From Desulfovibrio sp. (lineage in GTDB: Bacteria; Bacillota; Dethiobacteria; DTU022): a DNA stretch of 64,000 nt. Location: assembly GCA_020060545.1 (NCBI GenBank), contig JAGUZX010000135.1:4734-68733 (forward strand), in the 5' to 3' direction. The position numbers and the translations under genes are program-made. Numbering within the stretch: position 1 is the first letter of the stretch; every line of letters begins with the position of its first letter. Below are positions 10,280 through 59,859 of the stretch, in pieces. The notes below the pieces were generated by a model, which was given only the letters and a program-made list of their open reading frames with translations, had not been told where the DNA came from and made no database searches.

Positions 10280-11182
10280 TCAAGGGGGGGCGAGCACGGT
10301 CAGAAGGCCCGGCCTGATGCTTATTTTGGCCGGCAGCTCTCCCAAGATTTCGCCGTCGATATGCACCGGAATTGACTCTGGCGCGTTGATGGTAATTTCT
10401 TTGGCGGTGGCCGTAAGGATGGCGTTGTGGCCCAGGTGCTTTTTAAAAAATGCTTTAACCGCCAGAGTCGTGGTATTGGCGTAGTTCGTTTTCCTGACCA
10501 GGCAAATGTCCAGTTTACCGTCGTCCACCTTCGCCTGGGGAGCGATGCAAAGCTGTCCCCCGTAGTAACGGCCGTTTGAAACTACTGCCAGAATGGTTTT
10601 CTGTTCTTCGATCGTTTCTTTATCGCAGGTCACTGTCGCCGGAAAGCTGCCGAAAGTCGCCAGCTTGGCCAGAAAGGCGGTGACATAGGCCGGATAACCC
10701 CGCAGTACCTTGTTGTCCACCGTTGCAAGCTTGGCTACGGCGGCGTCAAAGCCGAAGCCGACCACGTTGAGAAAATACATTCCGTTGATCGTACCCAGAT
10801 CGATCTGCCGCGGATTCCATACGGCCAACCCCAGCAGGGCTTGATAAGAATCGCCGGGTATTTTCAGTGAACGGCGGAATCCGTTGCCCGTCCCGCCGGG
10901 GATAATCCCGACGATGTTCTTTTTAAAGTCGAGGCCGTTGACAACCTCCAGCAACGTCCCGTCTCCCCCGAGCACAACGAGCAGTTCGGCCCCGTTCGAG
11001 CGGGCCTGCTCCGCAATAGTGCTGCCGTCACCAGGGAACCGGGTCTGATGAACAGAATAAGACAGCCCTCCCTCTTGCAAGAGCGGCTCCAACCTGCGCC
11101 ACACGCGCAGGGATCGGCCCCGCCCCGCCCGGGGATTGATGATGAAAGCAGTTTTATACGGCAGCGTGGTTTCTCCCTCCAT
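10280..11182 (-). CDS. Diacylglycerol kinase-family lipid kinase (YegS/DagK-like)
   Basis: 300 aa. GGDGT motif and DAGK catalytic-domain architecture. Confidence 0.75.
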   Translation of the reverse strand: MEGETTLPYKTAFIINPRAGRGRSLRVWRRLEPLLQEGGLSYSVHQTRFPGDGSTIAEQARSNGAELLVVLGGDGTLLEVVNGLDFKKNIVGIIPGGTGNGFRRSLKIPGDSYQALLGLAVWNPRQIDLGTINGMYFLNVVGFGFDAAVAKLATVDNKVLRGYPAYVTAFLAKLATFGSFPATVTCDKETIEEQKTILAVVSNGRYYGGQLCIAPQAKVDDGKLDICLVRKTNYANTTTLAVKAFFKKHLGHNAILTATAKEITINAPESIPVHIDGEILGELPAKISIRPGLLTVLAPP

Positions 11183-27013: not shown

Positions 27014-27180
27014 TTTTCTCACCTCGCTTGTTTCGCCCATTCAACCAACTATATTTGTTTTTCCCACCAGGATGGTGATTATGTATCACCCCAAACAGCA
27101 AAAAATGCGTTGACAGATACCGGTAAATTAAGTATGATCAATGTGCACGGGCATGTGCACACAGAACTCGTTACGGGAGG

Positions 27181-28389
27181 ATGCCAGTCGTGGATGCCTT
27201 CGGGCAAAAAATCGCCGCTTTTTCGAAACAGGTTGAGGATCTCCGCCAGAAAGACCACTATTATTACCTGCAGCAGATTGACCGCCTGAACGGCGCCCGG
27301 GTTGAAATCGAAGGGCGGGAGATGGTTATGTTTTCATCGTACAGTTATCTCGGTCTCCTCAAGCATCCCCGGATCGAGGCGGCGGCCAAAGAGGCAGTGG
27401 ATCGCTTCGGTACAGGCACTCATGGAGTGCGGATCCTGGCCGGAACCACGGCCCTGCACAACTAGTTGGAGGAGAAAATGGCCTCCTTCATGGGTACGGA
27501 AGCCGCTATCGCTTACAGCAGCGGCTACGCGGCCAATCTGTCGACTATCTCCACCCTTACGGGGCGGCACGATATCGTTATCACCGATCGCCTCAGCCAT
27601 GCCAGCATTGTGGACGGCTGTATGCTTTCCCAGGCCGAATTCGTGCGTTTTAAACACAACGACCTGGCCGACCTGGCCAAGATCTTGGAAAAAGCGGGCT
27701 CCAACTACAAGGGGAAGCTGGTGGTTGTGGACGCGGTCTACAGTATGGATGGGGACCTCTGCCCTCTCCCGGATCTGCTGCAGCTATGCCGGGATCACCG
27801 CGCCTGGCTGTTGGTCGACGAAGCCCACTCGCTGGGGGTACTGGGTGAAACGGGACGCGGTATTCTTGAATACTACGGTATTACCGCCGATCAACCCGGG
27901 TTGATCCTTTCCGGTTCTCTCAGCAAAACAATCCCGGCCGTGGGCGGTTATATCGCGGGTAAGGCAAACCTGATTAATTTCCTCAAGCACAGCGCCCGCG
28001 CTTTTGTCTTCTCCGCGGCGCTGCCTCCCGCCGCCGTAGCGGCAGCCAAAACCGCGTTTGAGGTAATGGAGGAAGAAACCTGGCGCCTGGAGGCGGTCCG
28101 CCGCAACATCCGGCGTTTTATCGAAGGCTTGCACGCCCTGGGCTACAACACTCTGAACACCAAAAGCTGCGTTATCCCGATCATTATTGGGCAACCGGAG
28201 CCCACCCTCTCTCTAACCTGTGCCCTGCACGATGACGGAATGTTTGTCTCCCCCATCCTGCCGCCGGCGGTACCGGCGGGCACCTGCCGCTTGCGGGCCA
28301 ATGTCACCAGCGCCCATACCGGCGATGACATCGATTTTGCCCTGGGCTTACTGGAAAGACACGGGCAAAGAATGGGCATCATCGCCTGA
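27181..28389 (+). pseudogene. Alpha-oxoamine synthase family gene (SPT/BioF/Kbl-like PLP enzyme) interrupted by an in-frame TAG at 27463-27465
   Basis: ORFs 27181..27465 and 27466..28389 share one frame. Together they form a full-length AOS (DAVYSMDGD, DEAHS, SLSKTIPAVGGY PLP-lysine). The stop replaces a variable residue in the conserved H-x-x-LEEK region. Confidence 0.6.
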
Positions 28390-28395
28390 CCCCTG

Positions 28396-29253
28396 TTACT
28401 TGACCCGGTAATATTGCATCAGGCTCGCTTCGAAAAGCCGCTGCGGTAAAACTTTTTTCAGGAAGATTGCGCTTTTCTGGGACAGGGGGGCAAAGGTATA
28501 GCGCAGGCGGGGTTTAGTGGTATGGATAATTTTTTCGACCAGGCGGCCCAGGGCGTCAGGGAGCGGGCCGTTTTGCTCGTCTTTTTCCATCACGCTCAGG
28601 GAGCGGCGAAAATTTTCCCGGTAGGGTGAGTCATTCTGCGCCGCTTCCCGTGATACAATGCGGTTTGCCGTGAATGCGCTCTTGATATCACCGGGTTCGA
28701 TTAAAACGACCCTGATCCCGTAAGAACGGACCTCCATGCGGAGCGCTTCTGTAAGGCCCTCCAGAGCAAACTTGGCGGCGCTGTAGAAACCCTGGAAAGG
28801 AATGGCGATCAAACCGGCAAGCGAGCTGATGTTGATGATCAGGCCTCCACCGGCAAGGCGCATCAGGGGCAGCGCACACCGGCACACTCGCAATGGGCCG
28901 AAAAAATTGGTTTCAAACTGCGCCCTGGCTTCTTCCAAGGCGGTCTCTTCCACCGCACCGGCCAGGCCGTAACCAGCGTTATTAACCACCACGTCCAGGC
29001 GGCCCTCTCTCCGCCAAATCTGCTCGATCCCGCTCTTAACGGAATCGTCACTGTTCACATCCATATGCAGTATGATCGGCAAACCCGGGGCTTCCCCGGC
29101 AAACCCCGGCGCCGCCCTCCGGCTGGTCCCGTAAACCCGGTAACCTTTCTGCAAAAGGTATCCGGCGATAGATTCACCAATCCCCGACGAAGCTCCCGTC
29201 ACCAGTACAACCTTGCCCCCGCCGCTCACTCCCTCACCTCCCCAGATATTCAA
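28396..29253 (-). CDS. Short-chain dehydrogenase/reductase (SDR) family oxidoreductase
   Basis: TGASSGIG Rossmann motif, NNAG, YSAAK catalytic motif. Confidence 0.8.
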   Translation of the reverse strand: MNIWGGEGVSGGGKVVLVTGASSGIGESIAGYLLQKGYRVYGTSRRAAPGFAGEAPGLPIILHMDVNSDDSVKSGIEQIWRREGRLDVVVNNAGYGLAGAVEETALEEARAQFETNFFGPLRVCRCALPLMRLAGGGLIINISSLAGLIAIPFQGFYSAAKFALEGLTEALRMEVRSYGIRVVLIEPGDIKSAFTANRIVSREAAQNDSPYRENFRRSLSVMEKDEQNGPLPDALGRLVEKIIHTTKPRLRYTFAPLSQKSAIFLKKVLPQRLFEASLMQYYRVK

Positions 29254-29448
29254 CCAGTAATTTAAGATACTTTAAACTGCCGCCAAATTCCTGCCGTATC
29301 GGCAAATATACATTGGCGTTCCTTAGATCTCCGCAAGCTTAAACGAGGTACACATTTCAAAATGCTGAGTAGTATAGCTTTAGAGGATTAACCTAGGCTG
29401 TGGTTGGTCCTTAAGAATTAAGGCTGATGGAGGCAACCGGGTAACATT

Positions 29449-31116
29449 TTGGCGGAACTTGTAGAAGAGAAGTTATGGCATAAAAGTTACAGGCTTGGCT
29501 CCCGCCAGTTGGCGCGAAGTTTAACTCCTTATCCCGAACTGCCCTTATACACAATTTTAGATCACACGGCCTCCCGAAACCCTTCATCAAGTGCCGTAGA
29601 GTACTGCGAAAAAAAACTGAGCTATGCTGAACTGAAGGTGCAATGTGACAGTCTAGCCGCCGCCCTGGCCCGGCTCAAAGTAAAACCGGGGGATAAAGTA
29701 GTTACGATCCTGCCGACCTGCCCTCAATATATAATCAGCACGTTTGCAACCTTAATAACGGGTGCGGCCCATGTTCCATGCAGCATGCTCCAAAAAATAG
29801 AGGAGCTGGAGTACGAAATTCATGAGTCCGGGGCCAATACGGTAATTTGCTTACTTGAGCACTTGGACAGCATCAAATCAATTAGGCCCGGGACAAAGCT
29901 TAAGAATATTATCGTTACTTCAATTGATGATTATACCTTAGCACAGCCTGATCAATTAAAACGAATCAAGGGCGCCTACCAGTTCAGAGATTTAATCGCA
30001 AAATACAGGCCCCGCCCTCCAAAAGTCGTAATTAACCCCAGGGAAGATTTAGCCTACCTTGCTTTTACCGGGGGCGCAACAGGCCGGCCCAAAGGCGTAA
30101 TGCTGACGCACTATAACCGCCTGTGCAACGTACTGCAAGGGCTACCCTGGCTGTTGTCCACCTATGAGAAGCATCTCCGTGGAACCGGCTCGGTGATCAT
30201 CTCGGTCCCCCTTTTTCATTCATATGGTGATTGGATGATGCTGTCGGCGATTTACTGGGGCTTAAGAATAATCCTGGTCAGAGACCCCCGGGACATCGAT
30301 ACTTTGCTCGAGCTAATGATCAAAAACCGCCCTTTCCTGGTCAGTATTGTGCCCACTCAACTGATGAAGCTGCGTGAAAAGGATATCCCCGGCATGCCGG
30401 TGCAAATCATCTCCGGAGCGGCCTATTTACCGGACCATCTTCGTAAATCATTTTCTGAAAGGACTAAGATACCCGTATCGGAGGGCTACGGTTTAACAGA
30501 AGCCGGCCCTGTTACTCATATTAACCTGGCCGGCGCGTTCTCGCGCCAGGTAAAACACAGCATCGGCGTCCCGGTTCCGGATACGGCGGTGAAGTTAATT
30601 GATGAAGAGTCGGGTCAGGAATGCGCGATCGGCGAGGCAGGGCATATGTACATTAAAGGGCCTCAGGTAATGAAAGGTTACTGGCCAAACCCCGGGAACG
30701 GGTTGGTTGACGGTTGGCTCCCTACCGGCGATATCGCCCTGATGGATGAGGACGGTTACTTCTACCTGGTAGACCGCATTAAGGACATGGTAAATGTCTC
30801 CGGCTACAAAGTATATCCAGGCACCGTTGACGATATTTTATACCAGCACCCGGCAGTCTTCGCTGCGGCGTCCATCGGCGTGCCCGATCCGGAAAGGGGC
30901 GGGAGCGAAAGGATTAAAGCTTTTATCCAATTAAAGGAAGACTATAAAGGCAAAATAAGCGCCGCCGAGATCATTGAATTTTGCAAAGCTAAATGCCCGC
31001 CTTATGCCGTGCCGAGGTTTGTTGAATTTCGAGAAGACTTGCCTCTAACAGCAACCCAAAAGCTTTTTAAACGGAAATTAAGAGAAGAAGAGGCCGGCAA
31101 ACCGCAAACACAATAA
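29449..31116 (+). CDS. AMP-dependent synthetase/ligase (long-chain acyl-CoA/acyl-ACP synthetase-like)
   Basis: 555 aa. AMP-binding motifs (TGGATGRPKGV, GYGLTE, C-terminal PKTxxxK-type). Confidence 0.8.
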   Translation: MAELVEEKLWHKSYRLGSRQLARSLTPYPELPLYTILDHTASRNPSSSAVEYCEKKLSYAELKVQCDSLAAALARLKVKPGDKVVTILPTCPQYIISTFATLITGAAHVPCSMLQKIEELEYEIHESGANTVICLLEHLDSIKSIRPGTKLKNIIVTSIDDYTLAQPDQLKRIKGAYQFRDLIAKYRPRPPKVVINPREDLAYLAFTGGATGRPKGVMLTHYNRLCNVLQGLPWLLSTYEKHLRGTGSVIISVPLFHSYGDWMMLSAIYWGLRIILVRDPRDIDTLLELMIKNRPFLVSIVPTQLMKLREKDIPGMPVQIISGAAYLPDHLRKSFSERTKIPVSEGYGLTEAGPVTHINLAGAFSRQVKHSIGVPVPDTAVKLIDEESGQECAIGEAGHMYIKGPQVMKGYWPNPGNGLVDGWLPTGDIALMDEDGYFYLVDRIKDMVNVSGYKVYPGTVDDILYQHPAVFAAASIGVPDPERGGSERIKAFIQLKEDYKGKISAAEIIEFCKAKCPPYAVPRFVEFREDLPLTATQKLFKRKLREEEAGKPQTQ

Positions 31117-44790: not shown

Positions 44791-45675
<885 letters not shown>

Positions 45676-46454: not shown

Positions 46455-47633
46455 TCAGGATAACCCCATTTTCTTTTTCACTTTTTCAAACGCGGCCAGC
46501 GCTTTGTCCAGGTCGGCCCTGGTATGGCCGGCGGTGACGATCGTCCTGACCCGGGATTTATCTTCAGCCACCGTCGGGAAGCCGATGCCGGTACAGAAAA
46601 CGCCGTTTTCGAGCAGCGTATCGCTGAAGGCCATCGCCTTGGCCCCGTCGCCGATGATCACCGGCGTGATCGGGGTCTCACTGTTCCCGGTGTTGAAGCC
46701 GAGTTCTTTGAGCCCTTTTTTGAAGTACCTGGCGTTGGCCCACAGCCTTTCCTGCAGATCTTCTTCCTGCATCACCTCCAGGGCGGCGATGTTGGCGGCC
46801 GCGACGCCCGGCGGATGCGAGGTGCTGAAAAGGAAAGGGCGCCCCCGGTGGATCAGGTAGTCCACCAGACGCCGGCTGCCGGCGACGTAGCCGCCGAGCA
46901 CGCCGATCGCCTTCGACAAGGTGCCGATCTGGATGGCCACCCGGCCGTGTAAATCAAAGTGATCCACGCTCCCCCGCCCGTGCCGTCCCAGGACGCCGCT
47001 GGCGTGGGCGTCATCGACCATGACCACGGCGCCGTACTTCTCCGCCATCTTGACGATATCGGGCAGCCTGGCGATATCGCCGTCCATGCTGAAGACGCCG
47101 TCGGTGACAACGAGCTTCAGGCGGTAGCCGCCGCACTCCTGGAGCCGCTTCTCCAGGGCGTCCATGTCGCTGTGGGCGTAAATGCGCCGGTCGGCTTTGC
47201 TCAAGCGGATCCCGTCAATGATGCTGGCGTGGTTCAGCTCGTCGCTGATAATGACATCATCCTTGGTGAGCAGGCACTCGAGCACGCCGGTGTTGCAGGT
47301 AAAGCCCGATTGAAAGACCAGGGCGGCCTCGGTCTTTTTGAACGCGGCCAGCTTCTCTTCCAGTTCCCGGTGGATTTGCAGGGTGCCCGCGATGGTGCGC
47401 ACCGCGCCAGCCCCCACGCCAAACTGCTCCGTGGCCTTTACCGCGGCGGCGATCAGCTTCGGGTGGGCGGCCAGGCCCAGGTAGTTGTTCGAGGCGAGGT
47501 TGATCACCTCCCGGCCGTTGATCCGGACATGCGGGCCCTGGGCGCTTTCCAGGATGGTAAGCGCGCGGAATATTTTTTTGGTTTTGAGCTCATCGATTCT
47601 TTCAGCCAGTACTTTTTCCAGCAAAGCGTTCAT
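46455..47633 (-). CDS. kbl: 2-amino-3-ketobutyrate CoA ligase (glycine C-acetyltransferase)
   Basis: 392 aa AOS-family enzyme with [16 protein letters not shown]-lysine. Directly downstream of tdh. Confidence 0.85.
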
Positions 47634-47639
47634 CTCCTT

Positions 47640-48674
47640 TTACTTCTCTCCCGGGAAAAGAATGATCTTGCCGCATGCGCCGGAATTCATGATCCGGAAA
47701 GCCTCTTCAAATTCTTCCAGGTTCATGCGGTGGGTGATTACGGGGCTGACATCCAGCACGCCGCTTAGGAGCGCCGCCGTTTTATACCAGGTGGCGTAGA
47801 TTTCCCTGCCGGTGATGCCGGCCAGGGTGATCCCCTTGAAGATCACCTCGTTGGCCAGGTCCAGGCAGACCTTGTCTTGGGGAAGCCCCAGTAAAGCCGC
47901 CCGACCCCCGTTTTTGACGGCTTTCAGCCCGTCGTGGATCGACTGCTCGTGGCCGCTCATCTCGGCGAAAAGGTCCACGCCGCAGCCGCCTGTGTCCTCC
48001 AGCACTGCAGCGGCAACGTTTTCCCGAAGCGGGTTGATGGTTGCCGCCGCCCCCATCTGCCGGGCGAGATTCAGCCGGTAATCGATTATGTCGGCGGCGT
48101 AAATTTTAGCCGCGCCCGCGGCCCTGGCGATGCCGACGGCAAAAAGGCCGATGGACCCGCACCCGGTGACCAGGACGGTTTTGCCGGTTATATTTTCGGC
48201 TAGAACAGCCAGCACCGCGTTGCCGATCGGATCTTGCAGGCAGGCTGTTTCCGGGGGAATCAGCGGGTCATTTGGCCACAGGTTTGCCTCGGGGACACGG
48301 ACATATTCAGCAAAGCAGCCGTCTGTATCCAACCCGATTATCGAATAGCGCGTGCAGATATGGGCCTGGCCGGTGCGGCACTGGTAGCACTGCCCGCAGG
48401 TTTGGTGGCACTCCACGCTGACGTAATCGCCAGTGCGGCAGCGTTTTACCGCCGCACCCAATTCCACGATTTCACCCGCCATCTCGTGGCCCATAATGAC
48501 GGGAGGCTTCACTCGCGAAGCGGCCCACCGGTCCCAGTTATAGACATGCAGGTCGGTGCCGCAGATCGAGGATGCCAGCACCTTTACCAGGACATCATGG
48601 GGACCGGGCTCCGGAATGTCCGCCTTGATCAAGGCCGCCCCCGGGCCCGCTTTCTCTTTTACCAGCGCCTTCAT
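47640..48674 (-). CDS. tdh: L-threonine 3-dehydrogenase (Zn-dependent MDR family)
   Basis: GHEMAGEIVELG and structural-zinc Cys cluster (CGQCYQCRTGQAHIC). Start at MKALVKEK. Confidence 0.85.
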   Translation of the reverse strand: MKALVKEKAGPGAALIKADIPEPGPHDVLVKVLASSICGTDLHVYNWDRWAASRVKPPVIMGHEMAGEIVELGAAVKRCRTGDYVSVECHQTCGQCYQCRTGQAHICTRYSIIGLDTDGCFAEYVRVPEANLWPNDPLIPPETACLQDPIGNAVLAVLAENITGKTVLVTGCGSIGLFAVGIARAAGAAKIYAADIIDYRLNLARQMGAAATINPLRENVAAAVLEDTGGCGVDLFAEMSGHEQSIHDGLKAVKNGGRAALLGLPQDKVCLDLANEVIFKGITLAGITGREIYATWYKTAALLSGVLDVSPVITHRMNLEEFEEAFRIMNSGACGKIILFPGEK

Positions 48675-48726
48675 TTTACCTTTCACCGCCATGTCCTCCC
48701 ATGGTCGATCTTTTTTGGTTTTTCTT

Positions 48727-49713
48727 TCAGCATACCGGCCCGAAGACAATCTTCCCGCCGGCTTCCTTGCTCTGTACCGATCCCTCCAGCTCGAGGTAGC
48801 GCAGGTGGGAGACCGCTTCTCCCGTGGCGAACCATTTTTGCATCAGCGGGAACAACTCCCAGCTTTCGGCGATGATGTCCCAGTTCATTTTGGAAGCGAC
48901 CTGGAAAGCGCTGCTCATGCCGTCGCTTTTCAGGATCTGCATTACTTCATCCAGCCTGTGCCGGTGGTGGATTTTTAGTTCGCGGATCCGCTTGCGGCAG
49001 TCGGGGAAAGGATCCCGGTGCCCCGGCAAAACCAGGTTTATCTCCAGATCATCGATTTTGTCGAGACTCTGCAGGTACTGCCGGAGCGGATTTTCCAGGC
49101 CAAACCATTCCGCAATGTTCGGGGTGATATTGCCGAGGATATGGTCCCCGGAGACAAGTATTTTCCGGTCCGCCTCGTAGAGGCACAGGTGGCCCGGGGT
49201 GTGCCCGGGAGTCTCGACGCACTTGAAGCGATAATCTCCGGCGAGGACGGCGTCCCCTTCTTTCAACAGCGTAAAGGTAAAATAGTCCTTCGGCCGGTAT
49301 TTGTTCGCCGGGTGCATTTCAACGGCGCTCTGTAAAATACTTTCGGGAAAACCGTGCTGCCTGGCGAAGGAGATCGCCAGCTGCCACAGGTCCTGATAAT
49401 CGATCACCGCGGCGTCGGGTTGATTAAAGTAAACGGTTGATGATTTTGCGGCCATTTCGCCGACCAGCCCCAGGTGATCGACATGCAGGTGGGTAATAAA
49501 AAAATCGGTTTCTTCCAGGTTCACATGAAGTTGCCGCAAGGCCGCGGCCATGGCGCTTTTGCATTCTTGCCGGTTCATTCCCGTATCGATGATCAGGTTT
49601 CGCTTGCCGGCCGTGATGATATATGCATTGGTTTGTTTAAGCGGGTTGTTGGGCAGGGGAATCTCGGCCCGGTAAAAATGCGGCAGGACTTCTTCGATTA
49701 CCGGAACGCTCAT
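48727..49713 (-). CDS. MBL-fold metallo-hydrolase
   Basis: HxHxDH motif (THLHVDHLG) and downstream His/Asp ligands. Confidence 0.75.
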   Translation of the reverse strand: MSVPVIEEVLPHFYRAEIPLPNNPLKQTNAYIITAGKRNLIIDTGMNRQECKSAMAAALRQLHVNLEETDFFITHLHVDHLGLVGEMAAKSSTVYFNQPDAAVIDYQDLWQLAISFARQHGFPESILQSAVEMHPANKYRPKDYFTFTLLKEGDAVLAGDYRFKCVETPGHTPGHLCLYEADRKILVSGDHILGNITPNIAEWFGLENPLRQYLQSLDKIDDLEINLVLPGHRDPFPDCRKRIRELKIHHRHRLDEVMQILKSDGMSSAFQVASKMNWDIIAESWELFPLMQKWFATGEAVSHLRYLELEGSVQSKEAGGKIVFGPVC

Positions 49714-52155: not shown

Positions 52156-52740
52156 ATGCTGATGGACTTTCTTCTCCCGGCGGTGCCGGCATACCTGCTT
52201 GGCACGTTTCCTTCAGCCTATATCTTCACGAAGCTATTCAGCGGGATGGATATCCGCAAGCTCGGCTCGGGCAACGTGGGAGGCATGAATACCATTAGAT
52301 CCGTGGGAAAGCTGCCCGGCCTAATGACCATCGCCGCAGACATCGGGAAGGGGATCCTGGCGGTCTACCTGGCGCGGGCCCTTGGCGGCGGCCAGGCTGC
52401 GCTCCTGCTGGCCGCTTTCCTGGCGGTAATGGGGCACAATTACAACCCTTTCCTGGGATTCAAAGGAGGCAAGGGGCTCGGCACCTCCCTGGGGGCGCTG
52501 CTGGCGCTTTCGCCGCTTACCGTTTTAGTGATGCTTCTCTTCATCGCCGTGCTGCTCTTCCTGCTGCGGGATTCGAACACGGCGGCGGGGCTCGGGATCG
52601 CGGCGCTGCCGGCGGTGTTCTGGTTTATCTACCGTGATTGGCTCTGGGTCGCGGCGGGAGCGGCGCTGGCGCTGGTAATCGCCGTGAAGCACGCGCGGGA
52701 TTTCAAGGCTTACCGGAATGGCCGGCGGAAGCTGATCTAA
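52156..52740 (+). CDS. plsY: Glycerol-3-phosphate acyltransferase PlsY (paralogue 1)
   Basis: GSGNVGGMN and HNYNPFLGFKGGKG motifs. Confidence 0.8.
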   Translation: MLMDFLLPAVPAYLLGTFPSAYIFTKLFSGMDIRKLGSGNVGGMNTIRSVGKLPGLMTIAADIGKGILAVYLARALGGGQAALLLAAFLAVMGHNYNPFLGFKGGKGLGTSLGALLALSPLTVLVMLLFIAVLLFLLRDSNTAAGLGIAALPAVFWFIYRDWLWVAAGAALALVIAVKHARDFKAYRNGRRKLI

Positions 52741-59241: not shown

Positions 59242-59859
59242 TTAGGAGGCACCTTCTTCGGGCCGCTTGACCTTTTGCCCGAATTTGGACTCGGTTCCCT
59301 TCAGCAGCCGGCCGATATTGGCATGGTGGCGCAGGACAACCAGCAGGGCCATGGCGGCGCCGAACCATACGTACAGCGAAGAGAACCCGGGGAACAACCA
59401 GAATAAGAGGGGCAGCGAGAGCGCGCCAATGATGGAACCGAGGGAAACATAACGGGTTGCCGCGACGGCGGCGGCGAACAGGAATACCACGATCAGGGTA
59501 AGCCAGCCGGCCAGGGGGATCAGGACGCCGACCCCGGTGGCGGCCCCCTTGCCTCCCCTGAAACCAAGAAATACCGGAAAGCTGTGCCCCACCAGCACCG
59601 CCAAACCGGCCGCCAGCGGGTAGACCGCCGCTTCCGGGCTCAAGGCCCGGGCGATTAAAACCGCGGCGGCGCCTTTCCCCGCGTCAAGCAGGAACACCGG
59701 GAGCGCATAGCGCCACCCCAGCAGGCGCAATACATTGGTAGCGCCGATATTGCCGCTGCCGTGGCGGCGGATATCGATTCTTCCCACCAGGCGGGTCAAC
59801 AGGTAGCCGAAAGGGATTGACCCGAGCAGATAAGCGAGTCCGATCACCAGGTAACCCAT
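59242..59859 (-). CDS. plsY: Glycerol-3-phosphate acyltransferase PlsY (paralogue 2, in conserved der-plsY-gpsA block)
   Basis: GSGNIGATN and HSFPVFLGFRGGKG motifs. Confidence 0.85.
   Translation of the reverse strand: MGYLVIGLAYLLGSIPFGYLLTRLVGRIDIRRHGSGNIGATNVLRLLGWRYALPVFLLDAGKGAAAVLIARALSPEAAVYPLAAGLAVLVGHSFPVFLGFRGGKGAATGVGVLIPLAGWLTLIVVFLFAAAVAATRYVSLGSIIGALSLPLLFWLFPGFSSLYVWFGAAMALLVVLRHHANIGRLLKGTESKFGQKVKRPEEGAS

Follow-up and report, generated by a model that had tools for sequence, protein, structure and literature searches.

A lone in-frame amber codon in an otherwise intact gene of an apparently uncharacterised α-oxoamine synthase subfamily

Several enzymes of the α-oxoamine synthase (AOS) superfamily have been described together with the reductases or dehydrogenases that work beside them. 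In sphingoid-base synthesis serine palmitoyltransferase (SPT), for which the Sphingobacterium multivorum enzyme provides solved structures (PDB 3A2B/8GUH), is followed by a 3-ketodihydrosphingosine (3-KDS) reductase; in Bacteroides thetaiotaomicron the 3-ketosphinganine reductase is KdsR (BT_0972), for which Tyr-x-x-x-Lys and Gly-x-x-x-Gly-x-Gly motifs have been cited (PMC9278070), and an Spt-AcpR-AasR module is present in Caulobacter and other Rhodobacteria (PMC9386255). Kbl pairs with the dehydrogenase Tdh, BioF is a further classical subfamily, and ThAOS of Thermus thermophilus (PDB 7POA), which is promiscuous and thermostable, fits no single classical subfamily. Here we analyse an AOS gene split by an in-frame TAG on the forward strand of contig JAGUZX010000135.1 (assembly GCA_020060545.1), within a stretch of 64,000 nucleotides that we call the window. 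Our preferred reading, to which we give a rough probability of 0.48, is that the TAG marks a real loss-of-function allele of very recent origin, either a pseudogene in the making or a strain variant.

Compared with these systems, the window AOS comes nearest in sequence to the S. multivorum SPT, its best match among solved structures (302 bits, followed by ThAOS at 276, Sphingomonas SPTs at 265-274, BioF at 220-240 and Kbl at 212-236). The two share a fold (TM score 0.94, root-mean-square deviation 1.8 Å), and the catalytic His138, Asp210, His213 and Lys244 of the SPT are conserved in the window AOS, yet identity is only ~37-40% and they fall in separate clades of a neighbour-joining (NJ) tree. 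ThAOS, which heads the Foldseek hits with an E of 1e-40 and ~37% identity, resembles the window AOS in fitting no single classical subfamily, but is not its orthologue; Foldseek had no power to separate SPT, ThAOS, BioF and Kbl.

The stop codon and its age

The TAG lies at 27463-27465 (codon 92), between the open reading frames (ORFs) 27181..27465 and 27466..28389, which are in the same frame; across it the sequence reads ...CTG CAC AAC TAG TTG GAG GAG AAA ATG GCC.... The joined product, of ~400 residues, matches Pfam Aminotran_1_2 (PF00155) with 185 bits over residues 47-387. It retains the lysine motif that binds pyridoxal 5'-phosphate (PLP), SLSKTIPAVGGY, together with VDEAHS and DAVYSMDGD, all intact. 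The shared frame and the Pfam match bear out the original prediction, made from the letters of the window, that the TAG is the only interruption of a complete AOS gene whose catalytic motifs are preserved. The features of the gene, all on the plus strand, are as follows.

27110..27138, plus strand: promoter-like TTGACA-17 nt-TATGAT upstream of the AOS (11/12 consensus positions; a consensus match only)
27175..27180, plus strand: Shine-Dalgarno sequence GGGAGG, read off the sequence, with a spacing of 9 nt to GTG 27190 and of 0 nt to ATG 27181
27190..27462, plus strand: N-terminal 91 codons of the AOS, including the pocket segments S-S-Y-S-Y-L-G-L and G-T-G-T-H-G-V-R
27334-27357 and 27409-27432, plus strand: codons of the pocket signature SSYSYLGL and GTGTHGVR, from the family-wide alignment
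27463..27465, plus strand: in-frame TAG, codon 92 (CAG, CGG, AAA or GAA in orthologues)
27466..28389, plus strand: C-terminal portion of the AOS (a 303-residue call from ATG 27478), with the His/Asp/His/Lys residues and the PLP-lysine codon at 27925-27927; P0005 is 100% identical
27468..27480, plus strand: GGAGG (27468-27472) and ATG (27478-27480), a possible re-initiation site

The gene almost certainly begins at GTG 27190 and so occupies 27190..28389 on the plus strand, since GGGAGG abuts ATG 27181 directly, orthologues begin M-D/N-A/S-F, and a 91-residue call is found in public data. Promoter-like sites in this region are no more numerous than expected by chance. In the public JGI/IMG annotation the fragments appear as two separate 'glycine C-acetyltransferase' proteins of 94 and 303 residues. 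Among the real genes of the 64-kb window this is the only one that a lone stop codon interrupts; the AAA/VWA pair at 44791 consists of two ordinary genes.

A protein search returned full-length orthologues without interruption, with identities of 87, 85, 82 and 78% at the top and a large number in the range of 50-73%. When 18 sequences are aligned, the residue at the stop is variable, as had been predicted (Q, R, K or E across 17 orthologues), and is flanked by the invariant His and the invariant Glu of H-x-x-L-E; a stop stands at this site in 0 of 18 aligned family members. The site is a sense codon in the related loci (labelled L below), and it is CAG in the three closest: L112 (GCA_040751775.1, JBFMGD010000017.1), whose AOS is the nearest at 89% identity, L001/L002 (87%) and L007 (82%). 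The codon is CGG in L005, AAA in L095 (79%, the sole close relative to come from the metagenome scan) and GAA in L003. On this evidence the TAG is a single C>T transition from an ancestral Gln codon, CAG, and is shared by no relative.

The rest of the gene shows no sign of decay. The window AOS breaks an otherwise invariant column once, by a conservative Phe>Tyr change, and intact orthologues do so 0-14 times; its lineage-specific replacements number 11, against 5, 9, 21 and 23 in relatives. Measured against L001, dN/dS is 0.109 at a dS of 0.69 (0.19 upstream and 0.09 downstream of the stop), and pairs of intact orthologues give 0.07-0.11. Because purifying selection has been normal over essentially all of the gene's divergence, the stop is very young. 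The several lesions, relaxed selection and lost catalytic residues of a decayed pseudogene were not found in the gene, in which the TAG is the sole lesion and dN/dS is 0.11, nor does any orthologue combine the same stop with decayed catalytic residues, the pattern that the original prediction had associated with a plain dead pseudogene. The sense codons in relatives and the absence of decay therefore rule out two explanations: an old decayed pseudogene, by the intact catalytic residues, the single lesion and the dN/dS value, and conserved recoding, by the sense codon present in every orthologue.

Under the preferred reading, of a real and recent loss of function, one C>T change would have turned Gln codon 92 (CAG) into TAG in this genome, so that translation from GTG 27190 would end after 91 residues. 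A restart at ATG 27478 may yield a 303-residue fragment, which would be expected to be inactive, and full-length enzyme would arise at most in traces through near-cognate read-through of the UAG. Such read-through most probably inserts Gln, here the ancestral residue.

An error could have produced the same letters. A mistake in base calling, polishing or consensus building, or a variant from a minority strain that became fixed in a metagenome-assembled consensus, would leave a functional gene whose true codon is CAG, and we regard this as possible, if somewhat unlikely. The TAG is one transition away from the CAG that stands in the three closest orthologues, the AOS is undecayed and under strong purifying selection, the neighbouring short-chain dehydrogenase/reductase (SDR) gene and the promoter-like site are intact, and the sequence is probably derived from a metagenome. 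Against an error, substitution errors are rare in consensus assemblies, the site lies outside any homopolymer or repeat, and the split is present in both the NCBI and the JGI/IMG copies, although these are one and the same 109,645-bp contig and therefore not independent.

Several points weigh against a real allele. The stop is known from assembled sequence only, in which a consensus or base-calling error and a real allele look alike. A Logan contig (SRR22388167_945315; 3,124 nt) that is 100% identical to window positions 27969-31092 does not reach the TAG, its end lying ~500 nt away. With roughly a million contigs in SRR22388167, the source of the window may be a metagenome-assembled genome (MAG), and such an origin makes consensus artefacts and strain mixtures likelier. 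Moreover, the AOS is 89% identical to that of L112 at the protein level, and Tex and the SDR are 74% and 71% identical; since the AOS is conserved more than Tex, its casual loss would be somewhat surprising, and the gene would seem to be either unusually conserved or exchanged. Finally, the search for pyrrolysine or suppressor tRNAs covered the 64-kb window only.

Decoding and restart at the TAG

Instead of ending translation, the amber codon could be decoded, whether as pyrrolysine (Pyl), with the help of a suppressor tRNA or through efficient read-through, to give a full-length and active enzyme, possibly under certain conditions only. The AOS is otherwise perfect, and the site is a variable residue that accepts Q, R, K and E and into which Pyl or Gln would fit; in the predicted model of P0001, an 87% orthologue (mean predicted local distance difference test score 91), it is residue 92 within helix 88-101. 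Pyl systems also occur in some anaerobic Bacillota. The evidence from the window nevertheless makes decoding highly unlikely. The conserved TAG expected of a pyrrolysine protein was found in no orthologue, the codons there being CAG, CGG, AAA and GAA, and TAG is an ordinary stop here that terminates 10 of the 51 long ORFs. ARAGORN found tRNA-Leu and tRNA-Pro only, with no tRNA-Pyl, domain scans of ~50 window ORFs found no Pyl machinery, and no second gene split by a TAG is present in the window. The 120 nt after the TAG fold only mildly better than shuffled sequences (z = -2.2), their main hairpin being that between GGAGG and CCUCC, and Rfam gave no RNA element between 26000 and 32000.

That hairpin also bears on the idea of a functional two-piece enzyme, in which termination at the TAG would be coupled to re-initiation at ATG 27478 and the pieces of 91 and 303 residues would assemble. 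GGAGG and ATG do stand where the original prediction placed them, GGAGG 5 nt before the ATG and the ATG 13 nt past the stop, the 303-residue ORF is called by gene callers, and a restart there, with the predicted N-terminus MASFMGTEAAIAY, is mechanically plausible. As restart signals, however, they are by-products of the string TTG GAG GAG AAA ATG, which encodes the conserved L-E-E-K-M; L001 has TTGGAGACAAAGATG from the same codons and no stop. The window contains 27 instances of GGAGG-N4-9-ATG, where chance would give ~15. The Shine-Dalgarno sequence is also predicted to be sequestered, since GGAGG would pair with CCUCC at 27483-27487, nine bases downstream, in an 8-bp hairpin (27467-27490) with the AUG in its loop; the CCUCC lies in Ala-Ser-Phe codons, and the hairpin arises from the codons themselves. 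In addition the break falls within a helix, four residues would go missing, and no relative is split at this point, and together these observations leave a two-piece enzyme the slightest of chances. On its own the C-terminal fragment should be inactive, because the N-terminal piece holds the equivalent of the loop (Ala79-Ser81) that in the S. multivorum SPT reaches the active site of the other subunit.

The original prediction had thus offered error, recent inactivation, and suppressed or re-initiated translation side by side; a fresh C>T change without decay agrees with the first two, and the restart signals are accounted for by conserved codons. The stop codon itself is ordinary, a one-base lesion such as any genome or assembly may contain, and we infer either that the pathway has only lately been shut down in this genome or that the base is in error.

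Identity of the enzyme

Membership of the AOS superfamily is clear from the PF00155 match, from an H/S/D/H/S/S/K pattern identical to that of the references, and from the top PDB hits, all of which are AOS enzymes. Within the superfamily the protein stays below every curated cut-off. Its highest NCBIfam score is against the BioF model TIGR00858 (400.5, cut-off 426.45). The SPT models NF047600, NF047599 and NF047603 give 388, 355 and 299 against cut-offs of 640, 500 and 670, and the Kbl models PRK06939, TIGR01822 and TIGR01825 give 354, 292 and 373 against 460, 493 and 535.

The original prediction had set this paralogue apart from the housekeeping Kbl, and rightly so. A second AOS in the window, at 46455..47633, passes the Kbl models (533; 607 against 535) and is a genuine kbl, and the gene next to it at 47640-48749 on the minus strand is a tdh that passes PRK05396 (450 against 380) and lies just under the cut-off of TIGR00692 (455.9 against 458.35). 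With a true tdh-kbl pair already in the window and scores below every Kbl cut-off, a Kbl identity for the split gene is not supported. A BioF identity was rejected on the sub-cut-off score, the gene context and the tree: no neighbours of the bioA, bioB, bioD or bioW type were found in the window or in at least 20 orthologous loci.

Nor does the AOS have the marks of an SPT, and the sphingoid-base role that had been proposed for it is not supported. The L-Ser pocket residues of SPT are absent: in place of Asn52-Ser53, Ala79 and Ser81 of the S. multivorum enzyme, which contact the side chain or carboxylate of serine through water, the window AOS has Tyr-Ser, His and Val, and its PLP motif is G-S-L-S-K-T where SPT has G-T-F-S-K-S. 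Counted from the GTG start, the replacing residues are Tyr51, His78 and Val80. These substitutions belong to a signature of the whole family. In an alignment of 110 related loci all proteins that share 46% identity or more with the window AOS have S-Y-[S/G/A]-Y-L-G-L, with an invariant Tyr-x-Tyr where an Asn-containing motif is usual, and nearly all have G-T-G-T-H-G-V-R, with L096, L097 and L025 differing at one to three positions; the signature, loop His included, is found in none of the ~80 other AOS sequences of the alignment.

An NJ tree, built without bootstrap, in which only the S. multivorum SPT, the window Kbl and three loci that score above the BioF cut-off are labelled references, places the family in a clade of 29 outside BioF. 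Its sister is an unlabelled clade, followed by the group containing the S. multivorum SPT, and Kbl and the three curated BioFs (L052, L057 and L062) lie across the midpoint root. The protein is therefore an AOS of a distinct uncharacterised subfamily, outside BioF and Kbl and not demonstrably an SPT, that spans anaerobic Bacillota, Chloroflexota, Caldisericota and Thermodesulfobiota. A better annotation than two 'glycine C-acetyltransferase' proteins would be a single disrupted gene from an AOS subfamily that has no name as yet, and the wider value of the locus lies in this conserved clade, which escapes the curated SPT, Kbl, BioF, ALAS and CqsA models and has a unique pocket signature and a recurrent reductase or dehydrogenase partner.

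Neighbouring genes and a proposed function

The following genes flank the AOS in the window or stand beside it in orthologous loci, where the partner is a zinc-dependent medium-chain dehydrogenase/reductase (MDR).

28396..29229, minus strand: classical NADP-type SDR, KdsR-like, 277 residues, convergent with the AOS, their stop codons 6 nt apart
29449..31116, plus strand: FadD-like AMP-dependent acyl-CoA ligase (Pfam AMP-binding, 257 bits), divergent from the SDR
L003:8001-10484, L088:7001-9627, L092:7001-9544 and L008-L011, same strand: AOS-MDR pairs

The SDR had been predicted at 28396..29253; the gene is there, but it most likely runs from 28396 to 29229 and on the minus strand. Its best NCBIfam model is KdsR (NF049977, 298 bits, short of the cut-off of 400), followed by PRK06179 (253), and KdsR is also the best model for its relatives (305 and 318 bits). 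It shares the Tyr-x-x-x-Lys and Gly-x-x-x-Gly-x-Gly motifs with BT_0972. The TGASSGIG, NNAG, S...YSAAK and YGTSRR motifs are intact, and dN/dS is 0.17-0.23. An NADP motif of the YGTSRR type is typical of reductive SDR enzymes.

The convergent arrangement recurs in four of six close lineages (the window, L001/2, L005/6 and L095, where the gene is partial). In the other two it fails: the SDR is not adjacent in L007 and lies 7 kb from the AOS in L112. The synteny is shallow. An association beyond shared ancestry was found in one independent case, L113/L114, where an SDR 60% identical to that of the window lies 80 nt downstream of an SPT-like AOS on the same strand. That AOS, from a different clade, shares 40% identity with the one in the window; it reaches 591 bits on NF047600 (cut-off 640) and has the motifs GSNNY, GTGCSGSRF and GTFSKS. 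The SDR is probably the reductase of the AOS product, to judge from its model match and its neighbourhood.

The L113/L114 genes form a two-gene operon (L113:4721-6822 and L114:642-2719, from metagenomes 3300035099 and SRR11714386) with an SDR that is KdsR-like at 318 bits. The operon is adjoined by a Cu_amine_oxidN1 domain protein, a neighbour that we take to be associated with Bacillota, and it may encode a route to sphingoid bases in an organism that is Gram-positive.

The acyl ligase does not share this association. An AOS near an AMP-dependent acyl ligase recalls the Spt-AcpR-AasR module, but the window holds no acyl carrier protein (ACP) gene, with no ACP-like ORF between 24000 and 35000, and the ligase is FadD-like and unconserved. 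Its best NCBIfam scores, ~349 bits, are far under the cut-offs, and in no orthologous locus does a ligase stand beside the AOS, the nearest being a 36%-identical ligase 2.5 kb off in L024. As the SDR is on the minus strand and the ligase diverges from it, the three genes are not one operon. The ligase was rejected as a pathway member for want of a conserved adjacency and is probably unrelated to the AOS. Of the proposed trio of condensing enzyme, reductase and ligase, then, the link to the SDR gains support from the KdsR match, the four lineages and L113/L114, and the ligase drops out, as a neighbour in the window only that comes with no ACP and is not co-directional.

In orthologues 60-73% identical to the window AOS (L003/4, L008-L011 and L088-L094, from Bacillota and Halanaerobiales MAGs) the next gene on the same strand encodes the zinc-dependent MDR, of 413-477 residues. 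The gap to the AOS is 3-112 nt, with a 4-nt overlap in L088, and the pair is present in all of the 60-73% orthologues except L012. The best NCBIfam match of the MDR is Tdh, at a weak 90-104 bits. A related MDR lies 1.6-2.7 kb downstream of another AOS clade in Gemmatimonadota and Krumholzibacteriia loci (L081, L058 and L065), and the MDR of L088 (L088:8194-9627) carries a low-complexity insertion of ~60 residues, rich in Gly, Ala, Ser and Pro, between its zinc-ligand motifs.

When intact, the AOS would condense a small amino acid with an acyl-CoA, in a PLP-dependent and decarboxylative reaction, to an α-amino ketone, which the NADPH-type KdsR-like SDR would then reduce to an amino alcohol, much as a 3-KDS reductase follows SPT. 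The opposite direction deserves consideration. In a catabolic, Kbl-like family the MDR or SDR would oxidise a β-hydroxy amino compound, and the AOS would cleave the resulting 2-amino-3-keto product with CoA to glycine and an acyl-CoA. Kbl and the window AOS have fold and chemistry in common, as well as the pairing with a dehydrogenase, and the MDR of the 60-73% orthologues is closest, if weakly, to L-threonine 3-dehydrogenase. The order of AOS and dehydrogenase is that of kbl-tdh in E. coli, the AOS of L001 lies 190 nt downstream of tdh-kbl, and the pocket loop ends in G-V-R, near the A-V-R of Kbl and unlike the G-S-R of SPT. However, the AOS is only 41% identical to the window Kbl and fails every Kbl model, in a window that already has its tdh-kbl pair; the MDR is only distantly Tdh-like, and the partner in the window is an SDR on the opposite strand whose NADP-type YGTSRR motif is that of reductive enzymes. 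The closest solved sequence is an SPT, Kbl and BioF lie across the root of the tree, and a member of the window SDR's own subfamily is found paired with an AOS that is SPT-like. We therefore consider the catabolic role unlikely, and biosynthetic condensation followed by keto-reduction more likely; long-chain, sphingoid-type chemistry is possible.

This proposal has its own weak points, as the function of the AOS is drawn from its neighbours only, and in the clade of 50-58% identity the AOS has no SDR or MDR beside it; there its neighbours are unrelated genes such as gltX, EamA and an amidohydrolase, with the lipid kinase of L019, described below, as the exception. A more speculative version, which we hold to be quite unlikely, is that an undescribed AOS clade with a remodelled amino-acid pocket (Tyr-Ser-Tyr and the trans-loop His), working with the SDR or a coupled zinc dehydrogenase, makes an unknown amino alcohol, which could be a base of the sphingoid type in Gram-positive anaerobes that form spores or could be built from a non-canonical amino acid, with the amber codon perhaps conditionally decoded. 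Should intact members prove to make long-chain amino alcohols, anaerobic Gram-positive and Chloroflexota lineages would join those known to synthesise sphingoid-like lipids; should their amino acid be a different one, the clade would offer a new AOS specificity of interest for biocatalysis.

Two further neighbourhoods give weak hints of a lipid role. In L019 (L019:9938-12167, an Anaerolineales MAG) the AOS and the start of a lipid kinase gene of the DAGK_cat/YegS type overlap, and in L005, an 85% orthologue, a CDP-alcohol phosphatidyltransferase (L005:847-1422) lies 280 nt upstream of the AOS.

Some other genes were noted in passing. In L005 a Pr6Pr-family membrane protein follows the SDR (L005:3779-4420). 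The window has a YegS-type kinase of its own at 10280-11182 on the minus strand, far from the AOS. It also carries two PlsY (G3P_acyltransf) paralogues within 7 kb, at 52156-52740 on the plus strand and 59242-59859 on the minus strand, one beside Tex and the other in a gpsA-plsY-der cluster.

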